Source: Spirochaetales bacterium (GTDB lineage Bacteria > Spirochaetota > Spirochaetia > ARS1246). Taken from it: a DNA stretch of 17,332 nt. The notes under the pieces are model-generated. The model saw only the letters and a program-made list of their open reading frames with translations, ran no database searches and was not told the origin of the DNA. The position numbers and the translations under genes were made by a program. The stretch spans positions 1-17,332 of the forward strand of contig JAFGHN010000007.1 in the NCBI GenBank assembly GCA_016930115.1, read 5' to 3'. This document shows, one piece after another, positions 1 through 16,544 of this stretch. The stretch's first letter is position 1. Each line of letters opens with the position of its first letter.

Positions 1-231
1 TCGGTGGGCATCGCCTACACGCTGCAGATTGTCGCCCAGAAATCGGCGCCTCCCGCCCACGCCGCGATTATCATGAGCCTTGAGGGCGTTTTTGCGGTTC
101 TCGGCGGCTATCTGGTGCTTGGTGAAACCTTGTCCGTTCGCGGTTTCGCCGGTTGCGCACTGATGCTTTGCGGCATGATTATCTCTCAGGTCTCCGTGGG
201 TATTCGCGGCAAAGCCGTGCCGGAGGTATAG
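1..231 (+). CDS. DMT/EamA-family transporter, C-terminal fragment (gene starts upstream of window)
   Basis: Open frame from base 1. Hydrophobic TM segments with EamA-like C-terminal pattern (SLEGVFAVLGGYLVLGETLS...ALMLCGMII). No start context in window. Confidence 0.55.
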   Translation, partial: SVGIAYTLQIVAQKSAPPAHAAIIMSLEGVFAVLGGYLVLGETLSVRGFAGCALMLCGMIISQVSVGIRGKAVPEV

Positions 232-284
232 GAGAGCCTTCGCGTGGGTGGCACGGGCCGGGTCAAAAAAAAAGGCGTTACCAC

Positions 285-313
285 TTGACGAATTCCTGAG
301 ATTGTCCTATATT
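285..313 (+). promoter_or_regulatory. sigma70-like promoter: TTGACG (285-290), 17-nt spacer, TATATT (308-313), driving the GntR-ABC operon
   Basis: Near-consensus -35 and a good -10 at canonical 17-bp spacing, about 40 nt upstream of ATG 353. An A9 run lies just upstream (266-274). Confidence 0.45.
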
Positions 314-343
314 CCTATTGTACTAATGATTTAATACAATAGG
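314..343 (+). promoter_or_regulatory. 30-bp near-perfect palindrome CCTATTGTA-N12-TACAATAGG (12/15 arm matches), candidate GntR/YtrA operator over the transcription start
   Basis: Read directly: cctattgtactaatg / atttaatacaatagg are reverse complements with 3 mismatches. Contains the GT..AC cores typical of GntR operators. It sits immediately after the -10 hexamer and 10 nt before the GntR start codon. Confidence 0.5.
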
Positions 344-352
344 ATGTGACAG

Positions 353-760
353 ATGACAACCGACCGGCAAGGCAGCGGTTTGCAGTTCATCCTCGATCCC
401 ACCGGTGGAGTGCCCTACTATCGGCAGATCATCATGCAGATAGAGATGGCGATAGCCGACGGGCGGCTCAGGACCGGCATCCAGCTTCCGACTGTCCGGG
501 CGCTGGCTGTCGACCTTCAAATCAATCCAAACACCGTCGCACGGGCCTATAACGAGCTTGAGATCCGCGGTATCGTCAACACCCAGCAGGGTACCGGCAC
601 TTTTATCAGCGATAAGAAGATAGATCTGACCGACAGTGAACGGAGCGAGGTCCTCGCGGGCCTCGTACGTTCATTCCTGGCTACCGCGTCGTCCTACGGC
701 TTTACCGTTGACCAGATCATGACGTATCTCGACGAGAGAAAGGAGGGGCAAAAGCAATGA
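353..760 (+). CDS. GntR-family transcriptional regulator, YtrA-like subfamily (short C-terminal domain)
   Basis: 135 aa. N-terminal winged HTH with GntR signature (IQLPTVRALAVDLQINPNTVARAYNELEIRGIV). The C-terminal part is only about 60 aa, as in YtrA-type regulators. Stop overlaps the next gene (ATGA). Confidence 0.85.
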   Translation: MTTDRQGSGLQFILDPTGGVPYYRQIIMQIEMAIADGRLRTGIQLPTVRALAVDLQINPNTVARAYNELEIRGIVNTQQGTGTFISDKKIDLTDSERSEVLAGLVRSFLATASSYGFTVDQIMTYLDERKEGQKQ

Positions 761-1920
761 AATCGTTGGATTTCTTTGGCCGGCATGAGGATCGCGAGGA
801 GAAAACCGCGTTCGTACGGCACCGCGGGCACTTCAGGTTCAACACTATTTCTGCTCTCGCGCTGCTTATCTTTATCGCCCTCGGCCTGGGTTTTCAGGGT
901 ATTGTCGCAGACTTCCCGGATGCCGAAACCATCGCGTATATCACGTCCGGAGTGCTGGCGGCGGCGGCATTGCTCTTCATCCTTCCATACTGGCCCCTGG
1001 TCATAGCGATCATTGCTGCGATCTGGGCAGTGCTTCCGGTTGCTCTTGGCGTGGACCTGCAGTTCGCGGCGGTCGTCCTCACCCTTGGATTTCTCATCTC
1101 TCCGGGATTCGAGGTGATAAATCAATGGGACAAGATCGTAGTTCTCCGTCTCGGCCGGTTCCACAAGGTCCGGGGCCCGGGCGTGCTGATGTTGTTTCCT
1201 CTTATCGACTCGGTTGCGGGCTATGTTGATACCCGGATCCGGGTGACCGATTTTTCGGCGGAGAAGAGCCTTACAAAGGATACCGTTCCGGTACATGTGG
1301 ACGCGCTCGCCTTCTGGATGATCTGGGACCCTGAAAAGGCGATCCTGGAAGTCGAGAACTTTGAGCAAGCCGTGGTATTGAGCGCTCAGACGGCCTTGAG
1401 GGCCAGTATCGGCTCCAGCGACCTGGCGACACTGTTGAGTGAACGCGAAAGGCTTGGGGAAGAGATCAGAAAGATCGTCGACGCCAAAACGGATTCCTGG
1501 GGGATAACGATCATCTCCGTGGAGTTCAAAGAGATTCTCATACCAAAAGAGCTCGAGGATGTCCTGAGCAGGCAGGCGCAGGCAGACAGGGAAAAAACCG
1601 CGAGGATCGTCCTCGGCTCGGCAGAGGTCGAAATTGCTGGCGCGTTCAAGAAAGCCGCCGACCAGTACCGTGAAGATCCCGTAGCATTCCAGCTCCGGGC
1701 GATGAGCATGATCTATGAAAGCATCAGAAACAGGGGCGGCATGGTGCTCGTTCCCTCTTCGGCCCTCGAATCGATGAATTTGGGTACCGTGCTCGGTGCG
1801 ACGGCGTATGCAAAAAAATCGCCGTTTGCCGCCGGGGACCTTCAGCCGGAAAATGCGCCCGGAAGCCCGCCGGGAAGCGCTCCGGATAGCACACCGGATA
1901 GCGAGCCGGAATCACTATAG
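757..1920 (+). CDS. SPFH/band-7 (stomatin/slipin-like) membrane protein with about 4 N-terminal TM helices and an acidic Pro/Ser-rich C-terminal tail
   Basis: 387 aa. Residues about 30-115 are very hydrophobic (several TM segments). The central region matches the band-7 fold pattern (VVLRLGRF...VDTRIRV...DALAFWMIWDPEKA...ISVEFKEILIPKE...REKTARIVLGSAEVEIA). The tail is PENAPGSPPGSAPDSTPDSEPESL. Translationally coupled to the GntR gene. Confidence 0.85.
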   Translation: MKSLDFFGRHEDREEKTAFVRHRGHFRFNTISALALLIFIALGLGFQGIVADFPDAETIAYITSGVLAAAALLFILPYWPLVIAIIAAIWAVLPVALGVDLQFAAVVLTLGFLISPGFEVINQWDKIVVLRLGRFHKVRGPGVLMLFPLIDSVAGYVDTRIRVTDFSAEKSLTKDTVPVHVDALAFWMIWDPEKAILEVENFEQAVVLSAQTALRASIGSSDLATLLSERERLGEEIRKIVDAKTDSWGITIISVEFKEILIPKELEDVLSRQAQADREKTARIVLGSAEVEIAGAFKKAADQYREDPVAFQLRAMSMIYESIRNRGGMVLVPSSALESMNLGTVLGATAYAKKSPFAAGDLQPENAPGSPPGSAPDSTPDSEPESL

Positions 1921-1932
1921 CGGGGGACGCCT

Positions 1933-2817
1933 GTGATTGAAGTCAGCAATCTCACTCAAGTATACAGAAGCGGAAAAGGCGTTTTCAACCTCGATTTTTC
2001 GATACCGGAAGGAGAGATATTCGGCTATCTTGGACCCAACGGTGCGGGGAAAACAACCACCATCAGGAATCTTCTGGGATTTGCGAACGCCGACGGCGGG
2101 TATGCGAGGATAAACGGTCTTGATTGCAGAAAGGACGCGGCCAGGCTTCAACCGATGATCGGCTATCTTCCCGGTGAAACCGCGTTCCTCGAAGACATGA
2201 CCGGCGCCGAGTTTCTCAAGTTCATGAGTGACATGCGCGGCACCGGGGATACCGGCAGACGTGATAGCCTCACAGAGAGATTTGCCCTCGATCCAAGGGG
2301 AAAAATCAAGAAAATGTCAAAAGGGATGAAACAGAAACTGGCGATCATCACCGCTTTCATGCATGATCCGGCGGTGTACATCCTCGATGAGCCGACCGCG
2401 GGCCTCGATCCCTTCATGCAGAACGTGTTCCTCGATCTCCTCGAGGAGGAACGGGGGCGCGGGAAGACCGTTATGATGTCCTCCCACATCTTTGAGGAGG
2501 TACAGCGAAGCTGTGACCGCGCGGGTATCATCAGGGAAGGGCGCCTTGTCGCAGTTGAAGACATAGAAGCGCTCAACGATGCGAAATCAAGAACATACGC
2601 GGTGACCTTCGCAGACCCCGCGGACTTAGGAAAGCTCGATGGACTGCAATTCCGCAGAATTTCATCGAACAGGGTCGAGATAACCGTCGGTCATGACTAT
2701 CGAAGTTTTTTCCAGACGCTCGCTCACTGCAGCGTGGTAGGGCTGTACTCGTCGGAGCAGTCTCTCGAAGACGTGTTTATGAAGTACTACGGAAGGAACG
2801 GCGGGACAGATGAATAA
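1933..2817 (+). CDS. ABC transporter ATP-binding protein (ABC-2 / DrrA-like subfamily, with C-terminal DUF4162-like extension)
   Basis: GTG start preceded by GGGGGA RBS. Walker A GPNGAGKTT. Degenerate signature MSKGMKQK. Walker B ILDEPTAGLD. H-loop SSHIF. About 80-aa C-terminal extension typical of ABC-2 ATPases. Confidence 0.9.
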   Translation: MIEVSNLTQVYRSGKGVFNLDFSIPEGEIFGYLGPNGAGKTTTIRNLLGFANADGGYARINGLDCRKDAARLQPMIGYLPGETAFLEDMTGAEFLKFMSDMRGTGDTGRRDSLTERFALDPRGKIKKMSKGMKQKLAIITAFMHDPAVYILDEPTAGLDPFMQNVFLDLLEEERGRGKTVMMSSHIFEEVQRSCDRAGIIREGRLVAVEDIEALNDAKSRTYAVTFADPADLGKLDGLQFRRISSNRVEITVGHDYRSFFQTLAHCSVVGLYSSEQSLEDVFMKYYGRNGGTDE

Positions 2818-3610
2818 GACGTTATTTCTCGTGGATCTGAAAGCGAACTGGCGTGTCATTCTCTTTGTCTCTCTCGTATTCATGATATACGTCTTAACGA
2901 GCGTGCTGATGTATGATCCTGACAGCATCGAAAAACTTGAACAGATGTTCACTCTGTTTCCGGAAGGAATGCTCAAGGCGCTCGGTTTCGATACGCTGGG
3001 GACGGACCTCAACGGGTACGTAGCCCACTACCTGTACGGGTTCATCGCAATCATATTCCCGCTTATCTATATCATTGTCATAGCCAACAAACTCATTGCG
3101 AAACACGTCGACTCGGGTTCCATGGCCTACCTGCTTACCACTCCCGTCACCAGGGTGAAGGTGGCGGTAACGCAGGCGGTGTTCCACGTGTCCGGGCTCA
3201 TTCTGATTTTCCTTATCGATATTGGGGTATTGGTGCTTCTGAGCTCCGCGGTTTTCCCGGGAAGTCTCAAGTTGGCGAGCTTTCTCTCGCTTAACTTCGT
3301 GACCATCATGACGTTGACGGTTGCCGGCGGAATCGGTTTTTTGTTTTCATGCATGTGCAACGACTCACGGAATTCTCTGGCCTTTGGGGCAGGTATCCCG
3401 GTCGCGTTCTTTGTCTTCAAAATGGTCTCCGAGATCGACGCCAAGCTCGAAGGTTTCAAGTATCTGTCGGTGTTTTCGCTGATCGAGATAGATAAGATAT
3501 TGGCGGACCCGGCCTACGGTCTGGGCGTGGGTTTTATCCTTCTTGGTGTGTCGGTGTTGCTTTACGGCGCCGGGGTTATCATCTTCAATAAGAAGAGTCT
3601 TGCGATATGA
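2810..3610 (+). CDS. ABC-2 type transporter permease (6-TM type)
   Basis: 266 aa, 6 predicted hydrophobic helices and no soluble domain. ATG overlaps the upstream ATPase stop by 8 nt. Confidence 0.8.
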   Translation: MNKTLFLVDLKANWRVILFVSLVFMIYVLTSVLMYDPDSIEKLEQMFTLFPEGMLKALGFDTLGTDLNGYVAHYLYGFIAIIFPLIYIIVIANKLIAKHVDSGSMAYLLTTPVTRVKVAVTQAVFHVSGLILIFLIDIGVLVLLSSAVFPGSLKLASFLSLNFVTIMTLTVAGGIGFLFSCMCNDSRNSLAFGAGIPVAFFVFKMVSEIDAKLEGFKYLSVFSLIEIDKILADPAYGLGVGFILLGVSVLLYGAGVIIFNKKSLAI

Positions 3611-3629
3611 ATTACAGGGGGTGTTGGTA

Positions 3630-4484
3630 ATGATCAAGGTTGAAGGGCTCTATCATTCGTATTCACATGACGATAAGTATGCAGTCCGCGATGCCAGTTT
3701 TGAAATAACCCGTGGAGAAGTCTTTGGATTCCTGGGGCCGTCCGGGGCGGGGAAGTCGACGACGCAGGGTGTGCTGACCGGTTTGCTTCAACTGCAGAAA
3801 GGCAATGTCTCCGTGGCGGGGTACGACGTCAAGAAACCGGTTCGCAAGATGTTCAACAAAATCGGTGTTTCTTTCGAGCAATCGAACGTATACGGCAAGC
3901 TTACCGCTCTCGAGAACCTCGAGTTCTACAGGAAGCTCTTTGACGTACCCACCCGGGATGCCATGGAGTTGCTCGAGATAGTGGGCCTCGATCACGTCGC
4001 GAACCAGCGGGCGGCGGAGTTTTCAAAGGGAATGAAGCACCGTCTGACTTTCATCAGAAGCATGATCAATAATCCTGAAATTTGGTTTCTCGATGAACCG
4101 ACGACGGGTCTCGATCCGGCGATTGCGAGCGAGATCAAGGACATCATCAAGCGCGAGAAGGAAAAAGGGACGACCGTGTTCCTTACCACCCACAACATGT
4201 TTGTGGCGGATGAGTTGTGCGATAGGGTCGGCTTTATCATCGACGGCGAGATCAAGCTTATCGATTCACCGAGAAACCTGAAGCTTCAATACGGCGAAAA
4301 GCTCGTGGAGGTGGACTACCGCAAAAACGGCGGTACGGTACGAGAGAAACTTTCCTTCATCGATGAGAGCGACAGGCGGCGGCTCAACGAAATCGTAAAC
4401 ACCGGTGCCATTGAAATGATGCACACAAAAGAAGCGACTCTCGAGGAGATCTTTATCAAGGTTACCGGAAGGGGGCTCGAGTAA
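3630..4484 (+). CDS. second ABC transporter ATP-binding protein (ABC-2 subfamily)
   Basis: ATG 3630 preceded by GGGGG RBS (3616-3620). The ORF-track start at 3543 lies inside the upstream permease and lacks an RBS. Walker A GPSGAGKST. Signature FSKGMKHRL. Walker B FLDEPTTGLD. H-loop TTHNMF. C-terminal extension present. Confidence 0.85.
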   Translation: MIKVEGLYHSYSHDDKYAVRDASFEITRGEVFGFLGPSGAGKSTTQGVLTGLLQLQKGNVSVAGYDVKKPVRKMFNKIGVSFEQSNVYGKLTALENLEFYRKLFDVPTRDAMELLEIVGLDHVANQRAAEFSKGMKHRLTFIRSMINNPEIWFLDEPTTGLDPAIASEIKDIIKREKEKGTTVFLTTHNMFVADELCDRVGFIIDGEIKLIDSPRNLKLQYGEKLVEVDYRKNGGTVREKLSFIDESDRRRLNEIVNTGAIEMMHTKEATLEEIFIKVTGRGLE

Positions 4485-5518
4485 TGAAACTGTTATACAG
4501 CTTTCTGAAAGATATGCGGTTGTCCTTCAAGAGCTTCTATATTTATATCGAGATCGGTTTTGCGCTGATATTCGTCGCGATAATGTTGTTTGTCGTTCCC
4601 GAGAACATCCGGCCGCAGGTCACCGTGTACGCCCATATCGATCTGCCTGAATCGTACCTTTCGGCCGCGGAAGGCGCGCTTTCAAAGGAAGGGTACGATA
4701 TAACGATGCTTTCTTCCCGGGAAGAAGTGGAGTCAGAGATTGCTTCCCACAGAAGCAGCGTCGGGCTCGTGGTTTCGCCGGAGGGCGGCAAGATCGTATA
4801 TGACTATATCCTCCAGGGATACGAAAGCGAGAAGTTCAAGAACGTCATCAAGGCCTCGATCGAAGGCACCTTTGTAAAAATGGCGCCCGGATTCCAGGAT
4901 GTCACCTCGGTGACAACCATCGAGGGCGACATCGAAAAGCTCTCAACGCGTCTGAATATGCTCCCGGTTTTCCTGGGGCTTAACGCGGCTTTTATGGGGC
5001 TTTTCATTATTGCGGCGTACATATTCCTTGATAAGGAAGAAGGCACCATCAAAGCCTTCGCCGTTACACCCGCCAAGGTGTGGCACTACCTGGCGAGCAA
5101 GATGGGTGTGATGCTTGTAACCGGATTGTTGTCCGGGTTGATCGCCACGGTGTTTATAGCGGGCGGGAAGGCGCACTACTTCCATCTGATCATGCTCATC
5201 ATCTCGCTCAACGCTTTCGGATCAGCCCTTGGGCTGTTTATTGCGAGCTTCTTCGATACCATGACAAAAGCCATGGGCTGGCTCTATGTTTCGATCATTA
5301 TTCTAGCTTTTGCGGCGGTGTCGTACTACATGCCGGCGTTCTCGCCCCTGGTTATTCGCATCCTCCCTTCGTATCCGATGCTCTTCGCATTCAGAGAGAC
5401 TCTGCACGAAGTGGTGGACCTCGGGTACGTGTACGCAAACGTGGGCGGATTTGCGGCGGCCGCGGTTGTGTTTTTCCTGCTTTCGAACTACCGGTTTAAG
5501 AAGACGCTGACGGTGTAA
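4484..5518 (+). CDS. ABC-2 family permease (N-terminal TM anchor, about 130-aa extracytoplasmic domain, 5 C-terminal TMs)
   Basis: 344 aa. Topology read from hydrophobicity: TM1 at about 17-37, soluble region about 40-165, then 5 hydrophobic helices. TAATG overlap with the upstream ATPase. Confidence 0.75.
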
Positions 5519-5528
5519 GGAGGCTCCC

Positions 5529-6530
5529 ATGTTCAGAAGAATATTTGCGGTTACTTTGCGGGATCTGAAAAGCGGTAGCCGTGATTTCATGATTCCCTAT
5601 ATCCTCGCGGCGCCGTTCCTTCTCGCGCTCATCTTGAAGGCCATCATCCCCGGAGCCGGCTCGGCGACGATAAACATAGCGGTGGACAGATCCGTAAGCG
5701 ATGAAGTCGTTACGTACCTGGAGGGGTACGGCAGAGTTGAAAAGCACGACGGCGTGGCGGATCTGGAAAAAAGAGTAGCGAAGACCGACGACGTATTCGG
5801 GCTCACGAAAACCGCGGAAGGATACGGGATTATCAGACGGGGGGACGAAACGCCCGGGGGGATCGAGATGCTGCAGGCGGTTTTGAATGCCCTGGAGAAT
5901 GGAGACCTCGACCTGCCCGTTGAAGTGCGGCTATCAGATATCGGTTGGAAACTTTCGCCCCTCAAACAGCATGGCGCGAACTTCCTCATCATCTTCTGCT
6001 CGGTATTCGGCGGAATGCTTATCACCTTAAGCCTTGTGGAGGAGAAGATGAGCAACACGCTGTCGGCAATCAACGTGAGCGCTGTCTCAAGGGCAGAGTT
6101 TATCATCGGTAAGAGCATTATCGGTTTCCTTGCGCCGATTCTCGGCGCCTTCGGCGTCATCTGGATCCTGGGATTTGAGGGCATCAACTACGGAATGGTG
6201 GCGCTCTCTTTCGTCAGCGTGGCCCTTATCAGTATCATCATAGGATTCAGCATCGGCAGCGCGAATACCGAACCGATCGGCGCGATTGCGAGCATGAAGA
6301 CCCTCTTCATCCCGGTGTTTGGGTCGATTTTTGGTGGAATATTCCTGGCAGACAAATGGCACCCGTTTCTCTGGTGGTCGCCGTTCTACTGGGCGTACAA
6401 TTCAATGGATTCGATCATGCTCAACGAAGCTTCCTGGGGGAAGGTATTACTGAACAGCGGAATCGTCGTCGTGATCACCGCGCTGGTATTCGCGGCGTTG
6501 AGAAAGAAAATCAGGCATGGCCTGCAGTAA
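5529..6530 (+). CDS. ABC-2 family permease paralogue (same TM1 - extracytoplasmic domain - 5 TM architecture)
   Basis: 333 aa. Strong RBS TAAGGAGG 8 nt upstream. Same architecture as the preceding gene but a divergent sequence. Confidence 0.75.
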
Positions 6531-6556
6531 GACACGCATACAAGGAGTGTTGCTGT

Positions 6557-6763
6557 ATGAACGGATTAGCGCTACTCGGTTTACTTCTGATTCTCTACGC
6601 GGTGGTAGTTGTTGTGCTGGCGGTCAAAAAACCAAAGCCGATCTGGGAGATGGGGAAGATACAGATGTTTATCAAGCTCCTTGGTGACAGAGGCACGGTG
6701 ATTTTGTTCTACGTCCTTGCCGCCATCGCACTGGGTTTTGGAATCTGGCTGCTGGTGCGTTGA
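6557..6763 (+). CDS. small hypothetical membrane protein (68 aa, two TM helices), terminal gene of the ABC operon
   Basis: ATG 6557 preceded by AAGGAG (6542-6547). Two hydrophobic helices (LALLGLLLILYAVVVVVLAV and ILFYVLAAIALGFGIWLLV) separated by a basic loop. Nested in the longer track ORF 6356..6763, which overlaps the permease. Confidence 0.45.
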   Translation: MNGLALLGLLLILYAVVVVVLAVKKPKPIWEMGKIQMFIKLLGDRGTVILFYVLAAIALGFGIWLLVR

Positions 6764-6776
6764 GCCGGCGGGCGGA

Positions 6777-6800
6777 CAGGCAGGCAAGCAGGCAGACAGG
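6777..6800. repeat. imperfect tetranucleotide repeat (CAGR)6: CAGGCAGGCAAGCAGGCAGACAGG, in the convergent intergenic region
   Basis: Read directly in the 64-nt gap between the plus-strand small membrane gene and the minus-strand USP gene. Confidence 0.4.
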
Positions 6801-6827
6801 AAATAGGCCTCGGCGTCCGGAAACCGG

Positions 6828-7292
6828 TCAGGAAATCACCGGCGCGCCGGGAACCACCAAAACGGGGCACGGGGCTTTGCGGACGATGCGCCCCGCCGTA
6901 TCACCGAAAAACCAGGTGTTCACGCGGCTCGATCCGCCCCGACCCATGACGATCAGATCGGTGTTTTCACGCTCCGCGGCTTCGAGTATTTTCTGTTCCA
7001 CTTTACCGACCGATGCCTTGAGCGACCATTGGAGATCTTCCGGGATGCGGCTCACGTATTCCTTCGCTATCTTTTCATCGATATCCGTTTTGGCCTTTTT
7101 GTCTATCTCGTCGACTTCATAGATATACGACTTCCAGAATTGGGCGTTGGGCTCGGGAACGACGTGGAAGATGATCAATTCACAGTCCGCGTTTCCGCTG
7201 GCAATATTCAGCGCGTGCAGGAACGCGACGCCCGCGTTTTGCGAAAAATCCGTGCAAAACAGTATTCGATTATAGATATCTCTGTGCGGCAT
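6828..7292 (-). CDS. universal stress protein (UspA family), co-transcribed downstream of the TRAP permease genes (TeaD-like arrangement)
   Basis: 154 aa. USP fold pattern with ATP-binding-type glycine motif (VMGRGGSSRVNTWFFGDTAGRIV). GGGAGG RBS 6 nt upstream. Starts 19 nt after the dctM stop on the same strand. Confidence 0.8.
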   Translation of the reverse strand: MPHRDIYNRILFCTDFSQNAGVAFLHALNIASGNADCELIIFHVVPEPNAQFWKSYIYEVDEIDKKAKTDIDEKIAKEYVSRIPEDLQWSLKASVGKVEQKILEAAERENTDLIVMGRGGSSRVNTWFFGDTAGRIVRKAPCPVLVVPGAPVIS

Positions 7293-7310
7293 GGTACCTC
7301 CCAGCGGCGA

Positions 7311-8609
7311 TTATGTTGCCCCGGAAAAAAGAAGCGTCAGCCCCGGTATAAACACAAGTATGACGGCTGCGAGCACGAGCATAAGAAGGAAAGGCAGAGC
7401 GCCCTTGAAGATCGATTGAAGCGGGATGTCGCGCTCTATCCCGCTGACGACATAGACATTGACGCCCACCGGCGGCGTGATAACCCCCATCTGGGTGATA
7501 ATCACCACTATGACGCCGAACCAGATGGGATTAAAGCCAAGCTGCACGATAACCGGATAGAAGATTGGTATGGTGAGCAGAACGAGCGCCAGTGCGTCGA
7601 TAAAGCAGCCGGCGAGGAGGAAGAACAGGATGACAAGGAACATCACCGCCCAGCCCGGAAGCGGCAGATTGGTGAACCAGTTTGCGAGGGCGAAGGGTAT
7701 TTGCGACACCGCAAGGAACCTGCCGAACACCACCGCCGCCGCAACGATGAAAAAAACCATGCTGGAAGTACGCACCGTCTCGAAGAGAACCTTCTTGAGC
7801 ATCTGCAGATTCAGTTTGCCTTTGACCGCCGCCACAAGCAGGCTACCCGCCGCGCCTACGGCCGCCGCTTCTATCGGTGTGAACAGGCCGATGAACATAC
7901 CGCCGATTACAACCACAAAGAGCGCAACCGTTTCAATGACGTTGACCAGTGACTTTAACCGGATTTTCCAGCTCGTTTTGGGGCCCGGCGGTCCAAGTTT
8001 CTTGTTCAGGGAGCACCGGACAAATATCGAACAGCAGAACAAAAACGAGATCAGTATACCCGGGACGATGCCCGCCAGGAACAATTCACCGATCGATTGC
8101 TCGGTCATGAGCGCGTAGACGATAAATACAACGCTGGGAGGGATGAGCATTCCCAGCCCGCCGCCTGCCGCAACGGTCCCGCCGGCCAACTCGTCTGAAT
8201 AGCCGTAGCGACGCATTTCAGGAAGTGCGACGGAGGCCATGGTCGCGGCGGTAGCCGGCCCTGAACCGCAAATGGCGCCAAAACCGGCGCACGCTCCCAC
8301 CGTCGCCATCGCGAGCCCTCCCGGCAGATGTCCGATCCAATTGTACGCCGCCTGAAAGAGGCGCCTGCTGATACCGGCGTGAAACGCCACCTGACCCATG
8401 AAGACAAACAGCGGGATAACCGTCAGGCTGTACGAAGAGAAGGTGTCATAAAGGTCGGCCACCACCATGCTCAACGCGGCGGACGGCGTTACGATCATTG
8501 CAAAACCGGCAAGCCCGGCCGCTATCAAGGCGAACGCAACGGGCATGCTGGTGAAAAGAAGAACAATCAGAATGCCGCAACCCAATATGCCGATCTGGAG
8601 AGGTGTCAT
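7311..8609 (-). CDS. dctM: TRAP transporter large permease subunit (DctM family)
   Basis: 432 aa, about 12 TM helices, typical DctM N-terminus (MTPLQIGILG...). Start overlaps the dctQ stop (ATGA). Confidence 0.9.
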   Translation of the reverse strand: MTPLQIGILGCGILIVLLFTSMPVAFALIAAGLAGFAMIVTPSAALSMVVADLYDTFSSYSLTVIPLFVFMGQVAFHAGISRRLFQAAYNWIGHLPGGLAMATVGACAGFGAICGSGPATAATMASVALPEMRRYGYSDELAGGTVAAGGGLGMLIPPSVVFIVYALMTEQSIGELFLAGIVPGILISFLFCCSIFVRCSLNKKLGPPGPKTSWKIRLKSLVNVIETVALFVVVIGGMFIGLFTPIEAAAVGAAGSLLVAAVKGKLNLQMLKKVLFETVRTSSMVFFIVAAAVVFGRFLAVSQIPFALANWFTNLPLPGWAVMFLVILFFLLAGCFIDALALVLLTIPIFYPVIVQLGFNPIWFGVIVVIITQMGVITPPVGVNVYVVSGIERDIPLQSIFKGALPFLLMLVLAAVILVFIPGLTLLFSGAT

Positions 8610-9118
8610 GGTTTTATCATCTCTTTGCCCGGTCGTATCAGGTGGTAGAAGACAGCCAGAAGCACCAGTACCAGATTGAAGCTGATGAGAAACGGTATCC
8701 AGAATACCGGTATTTGCGTCGTCGGCATGACCTCACCGCTTGCCAACAGGGACAATCCATAATCGATGTTCTTGTAGATCAGCAAACCGAACAAAGTGAG
8801 CGCCGAGAGGCGGAAAAGCGTGTCAACGGCGATCCGTCCCGCCCGGTTCAGGTTCTGATAAAAAAACTCGATGGCGATATGTCCTTTGACAGCCGTCACG
8901 TACGGAAGCCCGCAGGAGATAGCGATGACACCGGCTATCCGCACAATGTCGTACGCTCCGACGATGCCGATGTTGAATATCCTCAGGACTACGTCGGTCA
9001 TCGTAACGCCGATCATCACCAGTACCGCGAGGCCCGCGACCAGCGCAAGTACGTATATCACTCTCCGTATGATGTCAAAAGCGGCCTCAACGAAACCGCT
9101 TTCCGGATCCCCGGTCAT
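8606..9118 (-). CDS. dctQ: TRAP transporter small permease subunit (DctQ family)
   Basis: 170 aa, 4 hydrophobic helices. Lies between DctP and DctM genes with 1- and 4-nt overlaps. Confidence 0.75.
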   Translation of the reverse strand: MTGDPESGFVEAAFDIIRRVIYVLALVAGLAVLVMIGVTMTDVVLRIFNIGIVGAYDIVRIAGVIAISCGLPYVTAVKGHIAIEFFYQNLNRAGRIAVDTLFRLSALTLFGLLIYKNIDYGLSLLASGEVMPTTQIPVFWIPFLISFNLVLVLLAVFYHLIRPGKEMIKP

Positions 9119-10137
9119 CAGTTGGCAAGCGCTTTCTGTATGTCTGCAAGGAACTGCCGGCCGGGAAGCCCTTTTTCTTCAGTCGCTTTTACGTAATCAT
9201 CCAGGATGGGTCGCATCGCCTCAACAAAAAGCGTTTTTTGGCGAGGCGCAAGCTCGATAAAGACTTTGCCAAGACCCCGTACAAAAGCCTCTCCCTCTTC
9301 GTCGCTCAAGTCCCATGCCTCGCCCTGTTTGACGATCCATTCCTCGCTCACATCGGTGAAAATCTTTTGCAGATCCCGCGGAAGGGAGTCCCATTTATTC
9401 TTGTTCATGACAACGAACATCGCGGTGGTATATCCTATTGCCCGGGTATTGACGACGTGGTCAATCACTTCTCCCTGCTTCCACCCTTTGAGGGTTTCAA
9501 CGGGACAAAAAGTTGCATCCACAACCCCTTTCTGAAGGGCGTCATAGGTTTCTCCCTGGCTCATTGAGACAGGCACCGCGCCGAGACGCGATACGATTTT
9601 TGCGGATAACCCGGTGGCTCGAATTTTCATGGATTTCAAATCGTCGATTCCGGTTATTTCCTTCCGGCTCGCCAGTATCCCGGGACCGTGGGCGTGCAGG
9701 TAGAGGACGTGCACATCCTCAAGTTCCTTCGGTTGATATTTTTCAACCATATCACTCGCGATTCTGGTGGCCGTCAGCCCGTCCGGATACCCGAGAGGTA
9801 AATCCAGTCCTTCAAGCAGCGGAAATCTTCCCCGCGTATACGCGAATACACTCATCCCGATGTCGGAGATACCGCTCACTACCCCTTCATAGCATTTGTC
9901 GGCCTTGGTGAGCGTTTCCCCGGCGAAAATCGTAATTTTGATCCTGCCGTCTGAGCGTTTCTCTATTTCCCGTGCCCATGCATCCGCGGTTTGCGCCTGC
10001 AGGTGGCTGGCCGGAAAAAAGATGCTGTAATTCAGCTCAACCGTTTTTTTTGCTTGCGAATCCTCCGCCTTTTCACCACATCCGGAAAAGAAGAAGACCA
10101 TCGCGACCAGGATAAGAGCAGAGACGAGCTTTTTCAT
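9118..10137 (-). CDS. dctP: TRAP transporter substrate-binding protein (DctP family), probable lipoprotein
   Basis: Start taken at MKKLVSALILVAMVFFFSGC (AAGGA RBS 7 nt upstream). The track start at 10203 adds 22 residues without an RBS. Signal peptide ends in lipobox-like FSGC. The mature protein has the DctP/SiaP-like pattern. Confidence 0.85.
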   Translation of the reverse strand: MKKLVSALILVAMVFFFSGCGEKAEDSQAKKTVELNYSIFFPASHLQAQTADAWAREIEKRSDGRIKITIFAGETLTKADKCYEGVVSGISDIGMSVFAYTRGRFPLLEGLDLPLGYPDGLTATRIASDMVEKYQPKELEDVHVLYLHAHGPGILASRKEITGIDDLKSMKIRATGLSAKIVSRLGAVPVSMSQGETYDALQKGVVDATFCPVETLKGWKQGEVIDHVVNTRAIGYTTAMFVVMNKNKWDSLPRDLQKIFTDVSEEWIVKQGEAWDLSDEEGEAFVRGLGKVFIELAPRQKTLFVEAMRPILDDYVKATEEKGLPGRQFLADIQKALAN

Positions 10138-10222
10138 AGGATATCCTTCTCGTTTCAAGTAGTAACGGCATAAACAGTGGCATCTATCGATTTGGTTTGT
10201 CAATATATGGATGATCCTGCGT

Positions 10223-10247
10223 GCGCCCGGCGTTTCCAGCCGGGCGC
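10223..10247 (-). terminator. GC-rich hairpin (9-bp stem GCGCCCGGC / GCCGGGCGC, 7-nt loop) 14 nt downstream of the oxidoreductase stop; no U-tract
   Basis: Read directly: gcgcccggc-gtttcca-gccgggcgc. Lacks a T-run on either strand, so it is a possible terminator or attenuator rather than a confirmed intrinsic terminator. Confidence 0.3.
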
Positions 10248-10260
10248 CGTGTGGATTGTC

Positions 10261-11610
10261 TCACGCCGACATTTGTTGTATCGCAACTTCTGCAGCATTT
10301 ACGAGTTGATAGGCTATTGGCGACGCCGTAAGCGCAGGATGGGTGCCCGTTTGGAATGTGGCAATATCGTTTGCCGTCATTCTCTGGTGAATGCATGCGC
10401 TTATCGCGTTTATGAGCTCTCCGCCGCTTTTTGCGCCGTTTACCTGGCCGCCTATGATGACCTGGCTGCCGACTTCAAAAAGCAGCTTGACGCTCAGCAT
10501 TTCACCGCCGGGCATACAACCCGGATGACGGTTGATCGATTCCGCAACTCCCTCCACAACGTGGTAGTTTTTGGCCTCAGCCTGGGCTTTTGTAAGGCCG
10601 GCCGCGGCAAAAGCGCAGTCGCCGATCACCGTCGAATACACACCAATGACGCCCATGTTCACCCTGTGCGTTGAAAACAGGTTGGCGCCGGCTATCCGCG
10701 CCTCCATGGAAGCTATCGAGGCAAGCTTGAGGGCGGACGGCTTTCCGTCAAAGAAGGATACTTTCTCCGCGCAGTCCCCGCAGGCGAAAATAGAATCGTC
10801 GCTGGTTCTCATATACCTGTCCACTTGTATTCCGCCGGTGAGCCCGATCTCCAGACCCGCATCCTTGGCTAGTTCGGTGTTGGCTTTCGCCCCGATGCCG
10901 AGAAGCACGATGTCAACATCTATCTCCTTGCCGCTGTCAAGCTTTACTTTCTCTACGTATTCGCCACCCTCGAGAGACTCGACCTTCTCGTCGAGGGAGA
11001 GAGAAATATTCTCGGCCTTCAAGGTTTCCTCGGCTTTGACGCAGAACTCTTCGTCATACACGAGCTGCAAACAGTGGGTGAGCATCTCAACAATTGATAT
11101 TTTCAAATCGGGATAGCGGCGTCTGCATTCCTCCGCAAGCTCAACGCCGATAAAACCGCAACCCACGACGCAGAGGCTCTTTGCTTTTCCCATTGCTTCA
11201 ATTGCGGTTTCGAGGTACGGAACGTCTTTCTGGATTGCAAAGATGTTCTTCTTGTTGACTCCGGGGAACGGAGGTATGACCGGCCGCGAGCCGGTCGCGA
11301 GTACGAGGCTGTCGTATCCAAACTCGTCTTTTGAAGCGCCGGTCACCGTCTTCGCTTTGGGATCGATCTTTACAACCTCGTCCACAACCGTATCGATTGC
11401 GTTCTTCTTCATGGTGTCATCCGCGGGAATGAGGTTTTTTTCAGGAGTACCCACCACGCCAAAAGCGTAGGGGATCCCGCAAGGTATCGGAACAAGCTTT
11501 TCTTTGCGAATAACCAGAATACTCTTCTTCGGGTAATGCCTGCGCGCCGTTATAGCGGCAACAAGACCGGCGGCGCTTGCGCCTATCACGATAACATCAT
11601 ACTTCTTCAT
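10261..11610 (-). CDS. FAD-dependent pyridine nucleotide-disulfide oxidoreductase, single-redox-Cys class (NADH oxidase / CoA-disulfide reductase / NADH peroxidase family)
   Basis: 449 aa. FAD GxGxxG (VIVIGASAAG). Candidate redox-active Cys in PIPCGIPYAF near residue 44. NAD(P) site VVGCGFIGVELAEE. C-terminal dimerisation-domain pattern. GGAGG RBS. Confidence 0.85.
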   Translation of the reverse strand: MKKYDVIVIGASAAGLVAAITARRHYPKKSILVIRKEKLVPIPCGIPYAFGVVGTPEKNLIPADDTMKKNAIDTVVDEVVKIDPKAKTVTGASKDEFGYDSLVLATGSRPVIPPFPGVNKKNIFAIQKDVPYLETAIEAMGKAKSLCVVGCGFIGVELAEECRRRYPDLKISIVEMLTHCLQLVYDEEFCVKAEETLKAENISLSLDEKVESLEGGEYVEKVKLDSGKEIDVDIVLLGIGAKANTELAKDAGLEIGLTGGIQVDRYMRTSDDSIFACGDCAEKVSFFDGKPSALKLASIASMEARIAGANLFSTHRVNMGVIGVYSTVIGDCAFAAAGLTKAQAEAKNYHVVEGVAESINRHPGCMPGGEMLSVKLLFEVGSQVIIGGQVNGAKSGGELINAISACIHQRMTANDIATFQTGTHPALTASPIAYQLVNAAEVAIQQMSA

Positions 11611-11638
11611 GTATTCCTCCAGAATGCCTTATCTAAAT

Positions 11639-11657
11639 AATATTGATAATCATTATT
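11639..11657. promoter_or_regulatory. Fur-family (Fur/Zur/PerR-type) box AATATTGATAATCATTATT, with 7-1-7 core TGATAAT-C-ATTAT, in the divergent intergenic region
   Basis: 16/19 identity to the classical Fur box GATAATGATAATCATTATC, read directly. It lies 29-47 nt upstream of the minus-strand oxidoreductase start. It overlaps a plausible plus-strand promoter (TTGATA 11643-11648, 17 nt, TATAGC 11666-11671) for the ZIP gene. Confidence 0.5.
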
Positions 11658-11738
11658 TATTGCAGTATAGCCGGTCCCGGAAATTGTGGCAATCGTTTTT
11701 GACTCCGCTTGAGGACGTGCGTTACACTACAGGTATCT

Positions 11739-13070
11739 ATGAGTATTGAATTGCTGCGAAGCGCCTTCTTCTGGGGCTTGATCAGTGCGGTTTCGCTTCC
11801 GCTGGGAGCGTTGCTCGGGCTGCTGACCCGCCCTCCTCGCAAAGTGACGTCGGTGCTCATGGCTTTTGGCGCCGGCGCGCTGCTTTTTGCGCTGACCATT
11901 GAGCTTTTCTCTGAAAGCCTGCATCTGTCGCGCGAGTCAGGCAACAGCATCATCTATATTACAATAGCGGGTGCGCTGGCAGGCGGCCTGCTGTTTGACC
12001 TGCTCAACCAGCTCCTCAACAATCGCGGCGCCTTTCTGAGGAAGTTCGTTACGACAAGGAAGCACCTCGTCCGGATGAAGCGGAAAATGGCCCGCGCGCT
12101 CGTCAACGAATTGAGCCGGGTCAGGCTTCTTCAGTCGCTTCCCCCCGACGACATAGCAACGTTGATTCCCAATATGAAACGAGAGACCTTCGATGCAGGC
12201 GAAGTGATTTTCAGACAGGATGATCTCGGGTCAACTCTCTATTTCATCGTTTCCGGAGAGATCGAAATCCTGAGACGCGACGAGAGCGGGGATGAAAAAA
12301 CGGTCGCCGTTTTGTCCGATAATGACACCTTTGGAGAAATGGCGCTTCTCGGCAGCAGTCCACGGAATGCGACCGCCAGAGCCAAAACGCGAACGAACGT
12401 TTTGAAGGCTCTGCACAGCGATTTTGAGACGGCCCTTGCGCAATCGGACGCGCTCCGTGAATCGGCGCTGGTGCTGTTTCACCAACGCGCGGAGAATCTC
12501 TCGCAAAAGGCGAAGGACTACAGCGCCGAGGAGTGGGAGAGCAGGTGTTTGAAACGGCTGCAGCGTCTTTCAATCCCGGTTTCCGAGCAGGAAATCAACG
12601 AGGAATCGCAAAAAGCGATGCTGGGGAAAGGCGCGGCGATGGCGATCTGGCTTGGCATACTTCTCGACGGCATCCCTGAGTCCCTCATCATCGGGATCCT
12701 CTCGGCGAGCGTCACCGGTATCAGTCTGGCGTTTATCACCGGCGTTTTTCTGGCAAACCTCCCTGAAGCAATGTCAAGCGCCGTCGGCATGAAGAAAAGC
12801 GGTATGTCCTTCTCAACCATTCTCCTCATGTGGGGTTCTCTCTGTCTTATTACAGGCGCCGGCGCCGGTATCGGTGTTTTGCTGTTTCCGCCATCTACCG
12901 GAAAGTCGAGTTACATGCTCTTGAGCGGTATCGAGGGACTTGCCGCGGGAGCGATGCTGACGATGATCGCCGAGACGATGCTGCCTGAAGCCTTTGAGCA
13001 GGGCGGGGCAATCGTCGGATTTTCGACTCTGCTTGGCTTCCTTACCGCTCTTCTTGTCAAAGTGTTTTGA
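11739..13070 (+). CDS. ZIP-family (ZupT-like) metal transporter with a cyclic-nucleotide-binding (CAP-effector-type) domain inserted in the TM3-TM4 cytoplasmic loop
   Basis: The N-terminal 3 TMs align in pattern with ZupT TM1-3 (compare E. coli ZupT [21 protein letters not shown] with MAFGAGALLFALTIELFSESL here). The C-terminal 5 TMs carry ZIP xxPE motifs: LLDGIPESL and LANLPEAM (versus HNFPEG / HNIPEG), and ETMLPEAF (versus DELMP). Between them, residues about 145-265 form a complete cNMP-binding domain with an intact phosphate-binding cassette, FGEMALLGSSPRNATARAKT. Start chosen at ATG 11739; the track's TTG at 11709 is less likely. Confidence 0.75.
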   Translation: MSIELLRSAFFWGLISAVSLPLGALLGLLTRPPRKVTSVLMAFGAGALLFALTIELFSESLHLSRESGNSIIYITIAGALAGGLLFDLLNQLLNNRGAFLRKFVTTRKHLVRMKRKMARALVNELSRVRLLQSLPPDDIATLIPNMKRETFDAGEVIFRQDDLGSTLYFIVSGEIEILRRDESGDEKTVAVLSDNDTFGEMALLGSSPRNATARAKTRTNVLKALHSDFETALAQSDALRESALVLFHQRAENLSQKAKDYSAEEWESRCLKRLQRLSIPVSEQEINEESQKAMLGKGAAMAIWLGILLDGIPESLIIGILSASVTGISLAFITGVFLANLPEAMSSAVGMKKSGMSFSTILLMWGSLCLITGAGAGIGVLLFPPSTGKSSYMLLSGIEGLAAGAMLTMIAETMLPEAFEQGGAIVGFSTLLGFLTALLVKVF

Positions 13071-13143
13071 TCCACCGGCCCGGAAGCGGAACATCATTTT
13101 TCATTAGATATCCCGCCGTGAATCGATTACATTATGCTGAGAT

Positions 13144-14142
13144 ATGAAATACGTTACGGCGCGACGGTTCTTTTTGCCGCTATTTCTCCTCACCGCGTTG
13201 GCGGTCTCGCTTCCGGCCGACGGGGAACCAGGGACTGCTGCCGCCGCGATGACCGCGGCAATCGGAAAGCCTGTAAGGATGAAGACGACCCAGGGCGGCG
13301 TTTTTCATGGCATCCTGAAGTTGGTAGCGGAAGACAGGATCGAAATAGTCGCCGACGACGGGCAGATCCTACAAATCGATCTGGAATCGGTAGAAGAGTT
13401 TACCGTCATTGAGGAGAAGATCACAAAAGAGACCTTCTTCCAGGATTCCGCGGCCAACCGTCTGATCGTGATGCCCACCGGATTTCCCATGGAAACCGGG
13501 GAGTTTCACGTAGCAGACCAGGAGATTATTGCGGTAACCGTCAGTTACGGCTTGAACGAGCATGCATCCTTCTGGGCGGGTTTGAGTATACCCGGTTTTC
13601 TCGTGAGCGCGCGCTATATCTTCTCGCCTTCAGACAGCTTCGCGCTTTCGGTCGGTTCCTTTGCGGGTCTATCCTGGATGGAGAACCTCAAGACCGGGGT
13701 AATTCTTCCCTATCTCATCGGTTCCTGGGGAGAGCCGAACAACAACATTACGGTGGGCGCAAGCCCGATAGTGACCTTTGACTACACTCGGGCCACACCG
13801 TTTGAGCTCAATGGCGCGGTTGCTGCGCTGGGCGGGAAGATGGTATTGACGGCCTCTTCCTCGCTGATATTTGAGAACTGGATCATGTGGCTCAAGCGGG
13901 ATGTCTACGGGGGCTCGCTTGATCAGGCGAGTGCGAAATGGGACGCCGTTCCCAGAGTCCTCCTTCCCGCGGTTGTGTTTCGCATCGCCGGGCAGCGGTT
14001 GAGCTGGGACATCGGTGCGATCATTCCGCTGTTCATAACGGATTCCGGCTATGAAGCGAATACCGGTTACAGGCTGCAAGGCATTGGCGGTGATGCGGTT
14101 ATTCCACTCCCGATCCTGAGCGTGACCTATCGTATCGATTGA
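13144..14142 (+). CDS. secreted hypothetical protein (signal peptide; beta-rich, possibly outer-membrane or periplasmic)
   Basis: 332 aa. N-terminal signal peptide MKYVTARRFFLPLFLLTALAVSLPADG. Long stretches of alternating hydrophobic/polar residues consistent with beta strands. No recognisable catalytic motif. Confidence 0.55.
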   Translation: MKYVTARRFFLPLFLLTALAVSLPADGEPGTAAAAMTAAIGKPVRMKTTQGGVFHGILKLVAEDRIEIVADDGQILQIDLESVEEFTVIEEKITKETFFQDSAANRLIVMPTGFPMETGEFHVADQEIIAVTVSYGLNEHASFWAGLSIPGFLVSARYIFSPSDSFALSVGSFAGLSWMENLKTGVILPYLIGSWGEPNNNITVGASPIVTFDYTRATPFELNGAVAALGGKMVLTASSSLIFENWIMWLKRDVYGGSLDQASAKWDAVPRVLLPAVVFRIAGQRLSWDIGAIIPLFITDSGYEANTGYRLQGIGGDAVIPLPILSVTYRID

Positions 14143-14171
14143 ACCGGACATTCCCTGAAGGGGGACGGCCG

Positions 14172-14372
14172 TTAATCATCGACCTTGTATCCCGCTGCCG
14201 CCACCGCTTCTTTCACGGTGTCCAGGGAGACATCCCCTTTTACAACCGCCGACTGCTTCCTGAGGTTGACGGAAACGCCTTTGACGCCATTCAGTTTTTC
14301 GATACTCGATTTGACCGTTCTGACGCAATGGTCACAGCTCATTCCAACAATTTTCAGCTTTAGTCTGGTCAT
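14172..14372 (-). CDS. heavy-metal-associated (HMA) domain metallochaperone, CopZ-like
   Basis: 66 aa from ATG 14372 (GAGGAG RBS 6 nt upstream); the track's longer start adds 9 residues without an RBS. MxCxxC metal-binding motif GMSCDHC, ferredoxin-like beta-alpha-beta-beta-alpha-beta pattern. Confidence 0.75.
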   Translation of the reverse strand: MTRLKLKIVGMSCDHCVRTVKSSIEKLNGVKGVSVNLRKQSAVVKGDVSLDTVKEAVAAAGYKVDD

Positions 14373-14406
14373 GTCAAACTCCTCTGCATGTATATGCAAC
14401 TATCAG

Positions 14407-14751: not shown

Positions 14752-14766
14752 GCCACGTCTCCCGCT

Positions 14767-14798
14767 ATATATAAACGATTGCGCATGTGTTTATATAT
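14767..14798. promoter_or_regulatory. inverted repeat ATATATAAAC-N12-GTTTATATAT, candidate ArsR/SmtB operator in the divergent promoter region
   Basis: Perfect 10-bp arms read directly, 16-47 nt upstream of the arsR-like start. Overlaps AT-rich -10-like hexamers for the minus-strand gene. Confidence 0.45.
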
Positions 14799-14932
14799 TA
14801 GTCATTTTGTTGCGTCACATCAAGTATTTCGAGCACGCGGAAAATGATGTATTCTTCTGAGAGATCGCGGCTATAATGACCGTTCAGACAGTATTGCACG
14901 CGTCGGAAAAGAGGCGTGTCCAGGAGGGCAAA

Positions 14933-16521: not shown

Positions 16522-16544
16522 GAGTCACAGAAAGGGAATGCGAA

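Follow-up and report, generated by a model that had tools for sequence, protein, structure and literature searches.

The sequence considered here, referred to below as the window, covers positions 1 to 17,332 (17,332 nucleotides, nt) of contig JAFGHN010000007.1 from the metagenome-assembled genome of an uncultured Spirochaetales bacterium (assembly GCA_016930115.1). Positions 285-6763 hold an operon of eight tightly packed plus-strand genes which lie behind one promoter and operator and encode a GntR-family repressor, an SPFH protein, two ATPases and three permeases of the ATP-binding cassette (ABC) type and a small protein with two transmembrane (TM) helices; the open reading frames were checked in the window sequence. 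We consider that this locus is probably a self-repressed unit, in which a conserved YtrA-type repressor and a stomatin with four TM helices head a regulon that responds, together with exporters, to envelope stress or antimicrobial compounds. An eight-gene YtrA-type operon with an SPFH gene had been noticed before from the sequence alone (the original prediction), and this observation is confirmed.

The evidence comes mainly from the comparison of 133 related loci (numbered with the prefix L), 53 of them from species-representative genomes and 80 from metagenomes, in which genes were identified in tblastn and blastp searches whose queries were the window proteins and representative proteins of the other neighbours. 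The adjacency of the GntR and SPFH genes was scored in the 115 loci whose upstream sequence is at least 450 nt long, and the GntR gene was directly upstream of the SPFH gene in 114 of them. The sole exception is L116 (positions 1-1730), where an IS21-like element, composed of a transposase and an IstB-like ATPase, stands in place of the GntR gene and of ~97 codons at the start of the SPFH gene. In 39 loci the stop codon of the repressor gene overlaps the start codon of the SPFH gene by 4 nt (ATGA), in another 10 the overlap is 1 nt, and the divergences of the two proteins are correlated (r = 0.79). The repressor-SPFH pair is an invariant unit and the ABC genes are the variable part. It had been proposed that a synteny search might reveal the SPFH gene as a lineage-specific insertion not conserved with the ABC genes; the outcome was the opposite, with the SPFH and repressor genes as the conserved core. 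The hosts of the related loci are all diderm (Spirochaetes, deltaproteobacteria and Myxococcales) and most are uncultured spirochaetes. One contig, L003 (CAYFHS010000108.1), is filed under a metagenome-assembled genome of an "uncultured archaeon"; its SPFH protein and its ATPase-1 share 78% and 76% identity, respectively, with those of the window, and this contig is probably mis-binned.

The type of exporter was scored in the 106 loci with at least 900 nt of downstream sequence. About three quarters of them (73-78 loci) carry a mechanistically different, MacB/Lol-like module behind the SPFH gene, which consists of a LolD-like ATPase of 225 amino acids (aa), two permeases with FtsX and MacB_PCD domains, a LolA_like protein and a protein of ~400 aa with a signal peptide, although the Lol-like matches are far below the NCBIfam equivalog cut-offs. 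ABC-2 genes on the same strand as the SPFH gene, as in the window, were found in only 9-10 loci. About 13 loci have no exporter and there the neighbours are unrelated (aldo-keto reductase, GAF sensor, DUF1028, D-Ala-D-Ala ligase or a convergent Liv operon). Altogether, an ABC exporter is present in the operon or under the same operator in ~84% of the related loci. The terminal ~400-aa protein, found at 15033-16247 of L014 and at the equivalent place in ~40 loci, ends in GGRYSY and matches no Pfam or NCBIfam family; judging from its sequence it may be an outer-membrane beta-barrel that partners the LolA_like protein. An additional FtsX-type permease gene lies between the SPFH gene and the LolD-like ATPase gene in L071, L079, L081, L087, L110 and L116.

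The five ABC genes of the window had been read as one exporter with two ATPases and three permeases. The comparison separates them into two modules, which we call A (ATPase-1 and permease-1) and B (ATPase-2, permease-2 and permease-3). Module B, with or without the gene for the 68-aa membrane protein, follows the SPFH gene without module A in L002, L032, L041, L052 and L056, where ATPase-2 orthologues 76-87% identical to the window protein are encoded directly after it. A module-A-like pair occurs alone in L043, with an ATPase-1 copy that is 36% identical. Only the window and L001 have module A between the SPFH gene and module B, and in L001 an 87% identical ATPase-2 orthologue follows module A as in the window. 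The SPFH gene is also followed by ATPase-1 in the short contigs L003 and L054, and outside the window module A beside the SPFH gene is limited to L001, L003 and L054, which are its closest relatives. From this distribution the window appears to hold two independent ABC-2 exporters which were added to a repressor-stomatin core, and not one five-component machine.

Moreover, the regulon extends beyond the operon that contains the repressor. A module-B-like operon lies convergent to the SPFH gene in L018, L019 and L053, with a separate TTGAC promoter and an operator that is perfect. In L019 the operator is common to the GntR-SPFH unit and the separate ABC-2 operon; in L018 and L053 it was found at the ABC-2 promoter but not upstream of the GntR gene. 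In the deltaproteobacterial loci L047, L048, L049 and L051 the operator heads an operon with the order ATPase, permease, permease, GntR, SPFH and a 132-aa membrane protein. Since they carry the same operator, these separate, convergent or upstream ABC-2 operons belong to the GntR regulon. A neighbour-joining tree of the SPFH proteins has a uniformly ABC-2 clade that includes the window, with the convergent ABC-2 group as its sister, and both groups lie nested within the MacB-type loci. Two further ABC-2 loci, L032 and L043, fall by exception into MacB clades, a placement that implies repeated exchange of modules.

The promoter of the operon is sigma-70-like by sequence match, and a TTGAC-type -35 hexamer occupies the equivalent position in most related loci. 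Just downstream of the -10 hexamer lies the putative operator, a 30-bp palindrome formed by CCTATTGTACTAATG and ATTTAATACAATAGG, whose core is found once in the window against 0.10 copies expected by chance. With up to two mismatches allowed, TGTAYTA-N6-TARTACA was found within 260 nt upstream of the GntR gene in 99 of the 109 loci searched; as a rule it follows closely on the 3' side of a -10 box, at a distance of 26-63 nt from the GntR start codon. The consensus of 103 sites is TGTACTA-ATACAT-TAGTACA. In the window the -10 box is also overlapped by a half-site-like ATTGTCCTA, read directly from the sequence, which is a possible auxiliary contact for the repressor. Extra half-sites similar to it, or second operators, exist in L018, L053, L029, L033, L034, L036, L039 and L045, and in several loci a second full operator covers the spacer between the -35 and -10 hexamers (at ~10600-10640 in L018 and ~6670-6700 in L053). 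Their arrangement suggests cooperative or higher-order binding of the repressor.

The positions of these features are given in Table 1. The original prediction had described overlaps of 4, 8 and 1 nt and gaps of 10-26 nt behind a single promoter and operator, and exactly this spacing was recovered on the plus strand; the promoter and operator correspond to the TTGACG and TATATT hexamers and the palindrome. Its account of the gene products also holds: a YtrA-like repressor, two distinct ATPases, one permease with six TM helices and two with large loops agree with the Pfam matches, the hydropathy and the low identity of the ATPases, the multi-TM SPFH protein is translationally coupled to the repressor through the ATGA overlap, and the tiny terminal membrane protein is conserved after module B in other loci. 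The Pfam families found in the operon proteins, all above the gathering thresholds, are GntR, Band_7, ABC_tran (twice), ABC2_membrane_2 (once) and ABC2_membrane_3 (twice). The start assigned to ATPase-2, an ATG, is backed by the alignment to ATPase-1 and by orthologues of the same length.

Table 1. Promoter elements, putative operator and genes of the operon in the window.
Feature	Position	Strand	Length (aa)	Remarks
-35 hexamer TTGACG	285-290	+		10/12 match together with the -10 hexamer; 17-nt spacer
Half-site-like ATTGTCCTA	301-309	+		Overlaps the -10 box
-10 hexamer TATATT	308-313	+		5 nt upstream of the operator core
Putative operator CCTATTGTACTAATG/ATTTAATACAATAGG	314-343	none		30-bp palindrome; core TGTACTA-N6-TAATACA at 319-338
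GntR repressor	353-760	+	135	4-nt ATGA overlap with the SPFH gene at 757-760
SPFH protein	757-1920	+	387	Strong ribosome-binding site AAGGAGGGG at 740-748, inside the end of the GntR gene
ATPase-1 (module A)	1933-2817	+	294	12 nt after the SPFH gene
Permease-1 (module A)	2810-3610	+	266	8-nt overlap with ATPase-1
ATPase-2 (module B)	3630-4484	+	284	19 nt after permease-1
Permease-2 (module B)	4484-5518	+	344	1-nt overlap with ATPase-2
Permease-3 (module B)	5529-6530	+	333	10 nt after permease-2
Protein with two TM helices	6557-6763	+	68	26 nt after permease-3; ribosome-binding site AAGGAG at 6543-6548, 8 nt upstream

Residues 23-85 of the repressor match the Pfam family GntR (PF00392) with E = 2.9e-16 and 59.3 bits against a cut-off of 27. 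No second Pfam domain was found in it, hence it has no effector domain of the FCD, UTRA or aminotransferase kind and consists of a GntR winged helix-turn-helix and a short tail. Its closest solved relatives in near-full-length alignments are YtrA-type proteins of 113-134 aa (4r1h, 3by6, 3neu, 4ham and 2du9), and among the NCBIfam families it matches Rv1152 and PmtR best; these two families are also YtrA-type, and the scores fall far short of their equivalog cut-offs. By domain, size and linkage to ABC genes we assign the repressor to the YtrA subfamily. Its winged helix-turn-helix is highly conserved across the loci although the class of the ATPase changes.

In the SPFH protein, residues 120-284 match Band_7 (PF01145) with E = 8.6e-33. 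Sequence searches against solved relatives gave E = 1.9e-36 with PH1511 (3bk6), about 4e-34 with human stomatin, 1e-25 with QmcA and 1e-6 to 1e-7 with HflK/C, and the protein scores below the cut-offs of the NCBIfam models for HflK and HflC. It thus falls in the stomatin branch, closer to stomatins than to HflK/C or flotillins, and a 100% identical database entry is annotated as "slipin family protein". The stomatins usually have a single membrane anchor. Here four TM helices precede the SPFH domain (residues 30-50, 56-75, 79-97 and 102-123), with mean predicted local distance difference test (pLDDT) values of ~73-83 for these blocks in an AlphaFold2 model and with hydropathy in agreement. The fourth helix corresponds to the usual stomatin anchor, since the alignments to solved stomatins begin at residue 101. 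The three conserved helices before it, and a conserved juxtamembrane motif RGHFRFNT before the first one, are an extension specific to this family, the N-terminal region being kept in full-length homologues. A search of 1.84 billion representatives with the N-terminal four-helix region gave 15 matches, mostly fragments, and no other architecture containing it emerged. The distribution of charges (positive-inside rule) would put the N-terminus inside and the SPFH domain in the cytoplasm.

The C-terminal tail of the SPFH protein (residues ~357-387, window 1825-1920) is acidic and disordered. It varies in sequence and length among 112 homologues, but its net charge is negative in 107 of them, the mean charge being -5. 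By homology, and from the entries of a 16-mer of stomatin and a 26-mer of QmcA, the protein may assemble into an oligomeric ring or cage. No NfeD domain was found among the 18 window proteins scanned, a scan which covered the window only.

The two ATPases of the window are 28% identical in alignment. ATPase-1 matches ABC_tran with E = 5.6e-23 and by inspection its Walker A, signature, Walker B and H-loop motifs are intact; ATPase-2 matches the same family with E = 5.1e-27. Both are DrrA-like, as they are most similar to the TIGR01188 drrA subfamily, although with 178.5 bits (ATPase-1) and 237.1 bits (ATPase-2) they stay under its cut-off of 312.45. Permease-1 belongs to ABC2_membrane_2 (PF12679, E = 7.8e-13, 48.8 bits against a cut-off of 27.2) and has ~6 TM helices by hydropathy. 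Permease-2 and permease-3 match ABC2_membrane_3 (PF12698) with E = 2.2e-15 and 6.3e-18, respectively, and share by hydropathy an architecture of one TM helix, a large external loop of ~110 aa and five further TM helices; despite their common family they have only ~19% local identity. With ABC-2 permeases and DrrA-like ATPases, the window has the composition expected of ABC-2 (type V) exporters.

The last gene of the operon is small, and it can be regarded as a real gene since homologues of its 68-aa product, 64-82% identical, follow module B in L001, L002, L041 and L052. The protein has no significant Pfam match, with DUF1206 found only below threshold. In deltaproteobacterial and Myxococcales loci (11040-11438 in L047, and also in L046, L048 and L049) the gene after the SPFH gene encodes a conserved protein of 132 aa which has several TM helices and matches no known family, and no relationship was detectable between it and the 68-aa protein. 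We considered both small proteins as YjeT/DUF2065-like partners of the SPFH protein and rejected this idea, as Pfam searches up to E = 10 gave only sub-threshold matches to DUF1206 or V-ATPase-f.

The genes that flank the operon are unrelated to it and mostly on the opposite strand, and encode a Usp protein, a TRAP transporter, a pyridine-nucleotide oxidoreductase, a ZIP protein, a GNAT protein and PhzF. The ZIP-family metal transporter (11709-13070, plus strand) has an unusual architecture, in that its ZIP region is preceded by a cyclic-nucleotide-binding domain (residues 159-245), which suggests a metal transporter gated by cyclic nucleotides. Two adjoining plus-strand open reading frames, 13144-14142 (332 aa) and 14185-14727 (180 aa), have no Pfam match. 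An Rfam search of the window returned no matches.

A mechanism can be proposed from these data. In Streptococcus salivarius, the YtrA-like repressor MbrR acts through a palindrome on three ABC exporter operons, a flotillin-like gene and a CaaX protease gene, and during exposure to bacteriocin it is freed from DNA by capture on the ATP-bound ATPase MbrA (bioRxiv 10.64898/2026.02.18.706565). In the window, considering the position of the palindrome right after the -10 hexamer and what is known of YtrA, PmtR and MbrR, a dimer of the GntR/YtrA protein would bind there, over the transcription start, and shut off its own gene and all those downstream. Its release would yield the invariant effector, the stomatin-type SPFH protein, which would be held by its four-helix anchor with the SPFH domain and acidic tail in the cytoplasm and, by analogy with the rings of stomatin and QmcA, would assemble into an oligomeric cage at the cytoplasmic side of the membrane. 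Two ABC-2 exporters would here be the lineage-specific effectors, one built from two copies each of ATPase-1 and permease-1 and the other from two copies of ATPase-2 with permease-2, permease-3 and the 68-aa protein. The most likely role of the system would be a response to membrane-active or envelope-damaging compounds, in which the pumps remove the agent and the stomatin stabilises, repairs or compartmentalises the membrane. Since YtrA proteins lack a ligand-binding domain, induction would most likely proceed by capture of the repressor at the membrane, as for MbrR and MbrA, and the capturing partner could be either an operon-encoded ATPase or the stomatin.

Several observations weigh against this reading. 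No intrinsic terminator is evident after position 6763 in the 64 nt (6764-6827) up to the convergent Usp gene. Terminator-like patterns were matched 20 times in region 1-7400 against 7.8 expected, nearly all within coding sequence, and internal promoters inside the coding sequence of the operon are possible. The AlphaFold2 model of the SPFH protein, built on an alignment of 23 sequences of high identity, has an overall pLDDT of 55.6 and falls below 50 at residues 121-221; it was unusable for a fold search, so the sequence matches to solved stomatins were relied upon instead. PADLOC gave only generic ABC-ATPase similarities (mad3, AriA and others) for the operon and no specific defence system, with zero matches for the GntR, SPFH, permease and 68-aa proteins. 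The NCBIfam equivalog cut-offs of DrrA, PmtA/C and similar families were not reached. In addition, the stress or defence role is drawn by analogy from Bacillota, whereas the hosts here are diderm spirochaetes, and the dominant partner in other loci, being Lol-like and accompanied by a LolA-like protein, could point to the trafficking of lipids or lipoproteins.

This last alternative takes the regulon as a housekeeping or remodelling system for lipid or lipoprotein traffic in the envelope, with the SPFH protein organising the export site in the inner membrane. The resemblance of the predominant partner to LolCDE, with its LolA_like periplasmic protein and a putative outer-membrane protein, and the diderm nature of all hosts would fit it, but the weakness of the Lol-like matches, the window exporters without any periplasmic or outer-membrane component and the predicted tight autorepression by a YtrA-type regulator, which is typical of inducible stress systems, make it very unlikely in our view. 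We also see little likelihood, although slightly more, in the proposal of the original prediction that the SPFH protein is a dedicated assembly or scaffold factor present in fixed stoichiometry with the ABC-2 exporter. In most loci the exporter genes come after the SPFH gene in one operon, its linkage to exporters survives changes of gene order, and flotillins reportedly assist transporter function in Staphylococcus aureus (PMC10147376). The link between the SPFH gene and exporters is evolutionarily real; what did not stand is the tie to the ABC-2 transporter. A single SPFH family goes together with exporters of two types that have unrelated structures, ABC-2 and MacB/FtsX, the latter being the prevailing one; the window itself carries two separate exporters; the loci devoid of an exporter retain the pair; and the tightest coupling of the SPFH gene is to the repressor and not to an exporter subunit. 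The invariance of the SPFH protein, the changing class of the ATPase and the stand-alone pairs argue together against an assembly factor and leave capture by the ATPase or by the stomatin as the two options for induction.

Capture by the ATPase would be flux sensing of the Mbr type: ATPase-1 or ATPase-2 here, and the LolD-like protein elsewhere, would sequester the repressor while the pump is engaged, and the SPFH protein would be merely a co-induced effector. This explanation is possible, if somewhat doubtful. It has the experimental precedent of MbrR and MbrA, and structural modelling predicts a YtrA-YtrB pair and other pairs of YtrA proteins with ATPases; moreover, an ABC ATPase is available in the operon or under the same operator in most loci. 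At matched SPFH divergence the GntR divergence is slightly higher between loci of different ABC types (by 0.03-0.08), a difference which is small and confounded by phylogeny but which, if real, favours an ATPase partner. However, the precedent is restricted to Bacillota and has the ATPase gene directly after that of the repressor, whereas here the SPFH gene always intervenes. The switch of the ATPase between the DrrA-like and LolD-like classes (~27-35% identity) beside a highly conserved repressor winged helix-turn-helix is difficult to conciliate with such a contact, and so are the pairs without any nearby ATPase. In the other option the stomatin would itself be the membrane sensor and anti-repressor, capturing or releasing the repressor according to the state of the membrane, with the exporters as interchangeable outputs, a switch analogous to PspA-PspF or MbrA-MbrR. 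More precisely, upon perturbation of the membrane the stomatin assembly would capture the repressor through its DNA-binding domain, perhaps by means of the clustered acidic tails or the juxtamembrane motif of the stomatin, and so induce its own synthesis and that of the exporter. The SPFH gene, and not an ATPase gene, is the invariant and usually translationally coupled neighbour of the repressor gene, and at least 13 loci have an operator-bearing pair with no ABC gene nearby. The exchange of ATPase classes beside a constant repressor domain agrees with this option, as does the fact that YtrA regulators without a ligand domain are controlled by protein capture. The consistently acidic SPFH tail recalls the surface of MbrA that captures MbrR, an acidic patch contacting an arginine of the repressor. 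The contact between the GntR and SPFH proteins is nonetheless hypothetical, the adjacency and coupling of their genes would equally fit an SPFH protein that is simply the main regulated product, and the genomes with stand-alone pairs may encode operator-controlled ATPases elsewhere; we therefore consider this sensor role unlikely, for the switch in general as well as for the capture in the form given above.

If the stomatin switch were true, it would be the first transcription factor shown to be under the control of an SPFH scaffold and would give bacterial stomatins a defined signalling function. How YtrA repressors without a ligand domain sense their signals has only recently begun to be explained. 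To our knowledge, NfeD is the only recognised genetic partner of bacterial stomatin-type SPFH proteins, and the repressor-stomatin pair offers a genetic handle on the job that these proteins perform, be it that of effector, scaffold or sensor. In the library searched, YtrA occurs in no paper together with SPFH or stomatin, and two surveys of SPFH proteins make no mention of GntR. For annotation, the "five-component transporter" of the window would become two separate ABC-2 exporters. The significance is limited by the mostly uncultured hosts and by the streptococcal precedent, which already ties YtrA regulons to an SPFH protein. What is new here is an obligatory, translationally coupled four-TM stomatin with plug-in exporters; a YtrA-controlled exporter regulon with an SPFH member was already known.

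Among the known systems, the PmtR-PmtABCD operon of S. aureus encodes a YtrA-like repressor together with two ATPases and two permeases of the ABC-2 type. The window proteins stay well below the cut-offs of these families (56.7 against 200 for PmtR, 124.3 against 350 for PmtA and 97.2 against 375 for PmtC), and the Pmt operon is not known to have an SPFH gene. The prokaryotic stomatins or slipins, such as PH1511 and QmcA, share with the protein described here the SPFH domain and the helical region that follows it (E from 1e-25 to 1e-36), as well as the anchor directly before the SPFH domain. They differ in having an NfeD partner in their operons, either a protease or an OB-fold protein, where a transcription factor is found here, and in lacking the three extra TM helices and the RGHFRFNT motif. 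The pspA-ydjGHI operon of Bacillus subtilis likewise places an SPFH protein, YdjI, which links PspA to the membrane, in a membrane-stress operon (PMC8581546); it is regulated differently and is not known to include a YtrA repressor or ABC exporters, and its SPFH protein is of another subgroup, so the parallel is conceptual only.

The ytr operon of B. subtilis is induced by cell-wall antibiotics that bind lipid II, and its repressor YtrA recognises the site AGTGTA-N13-TACACT (PMC8060467). The ytrGABCDEF operon is autorepressed by YtrA through a TGTA/TACA inverted repeat, as is predicted for the operon of the window, and like it encodes two ATPases and several permeases. The half-sites of the operator described here, TTGTA-N12-TACAA, resemble the YtrA site, with a spacing of 12 nt instead of 13. 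The likeness to Bacillus ytrABCDEF that had been proposed holds for this logic. It fails for the components, given that the Bacillus operon combines ABC-2-like with MacB_PCD/FtsX components and contains no SPFH gene, whereas the window has no FtsX/MacB_PCD (YtrF-type) component; such permeases are located behind the GntR-SPFH pair in most of the other loci.

The closest precedent is the MbrR regulon of S. salivarius. It has, like the regulon described here, a YtrA-type repressor without effector domain, palindromic operators at its own and other promoters, several ABC exporters and an SPFH-superfamily protein, the flotillin-like MbrH, and its output is a multi-component membrane defence. The authors of the preprint termed the presence of a flotillin in that regulon "unexpected" (bioRxiv 10.64898/2026.02.18.706565), and their finding of a YtrA-like regulon with three exporters and a flotillin softens the description of the SPFH-exporter link as unusual. 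The likeness to the Mbr extruder-repressor module is one of regulon logic and not of effector homology. In mbrRAB the gene of the sequestering ATPase directly follows that of the repressor, whereas here the SPFH gene intervenes or, in the deltaproteobacterial loci, the ATPase gene lies upstream; the streptococcal host is Gram-positive and its regulon includes a CaaX protease, whereas the hosts here are diderm and no CaaX protease is present. Moreover, the flotillin of the MbrR regulon has its own transcription unit and is poorly conserved in streptococci, whereas the four-TM stomatin is coupled to the repressor and is the most conserved component. The SPFH protein, an accessory in the streptococcal precedent, would therefore be the centre of the YtrA-type regulon in the loci compared here.

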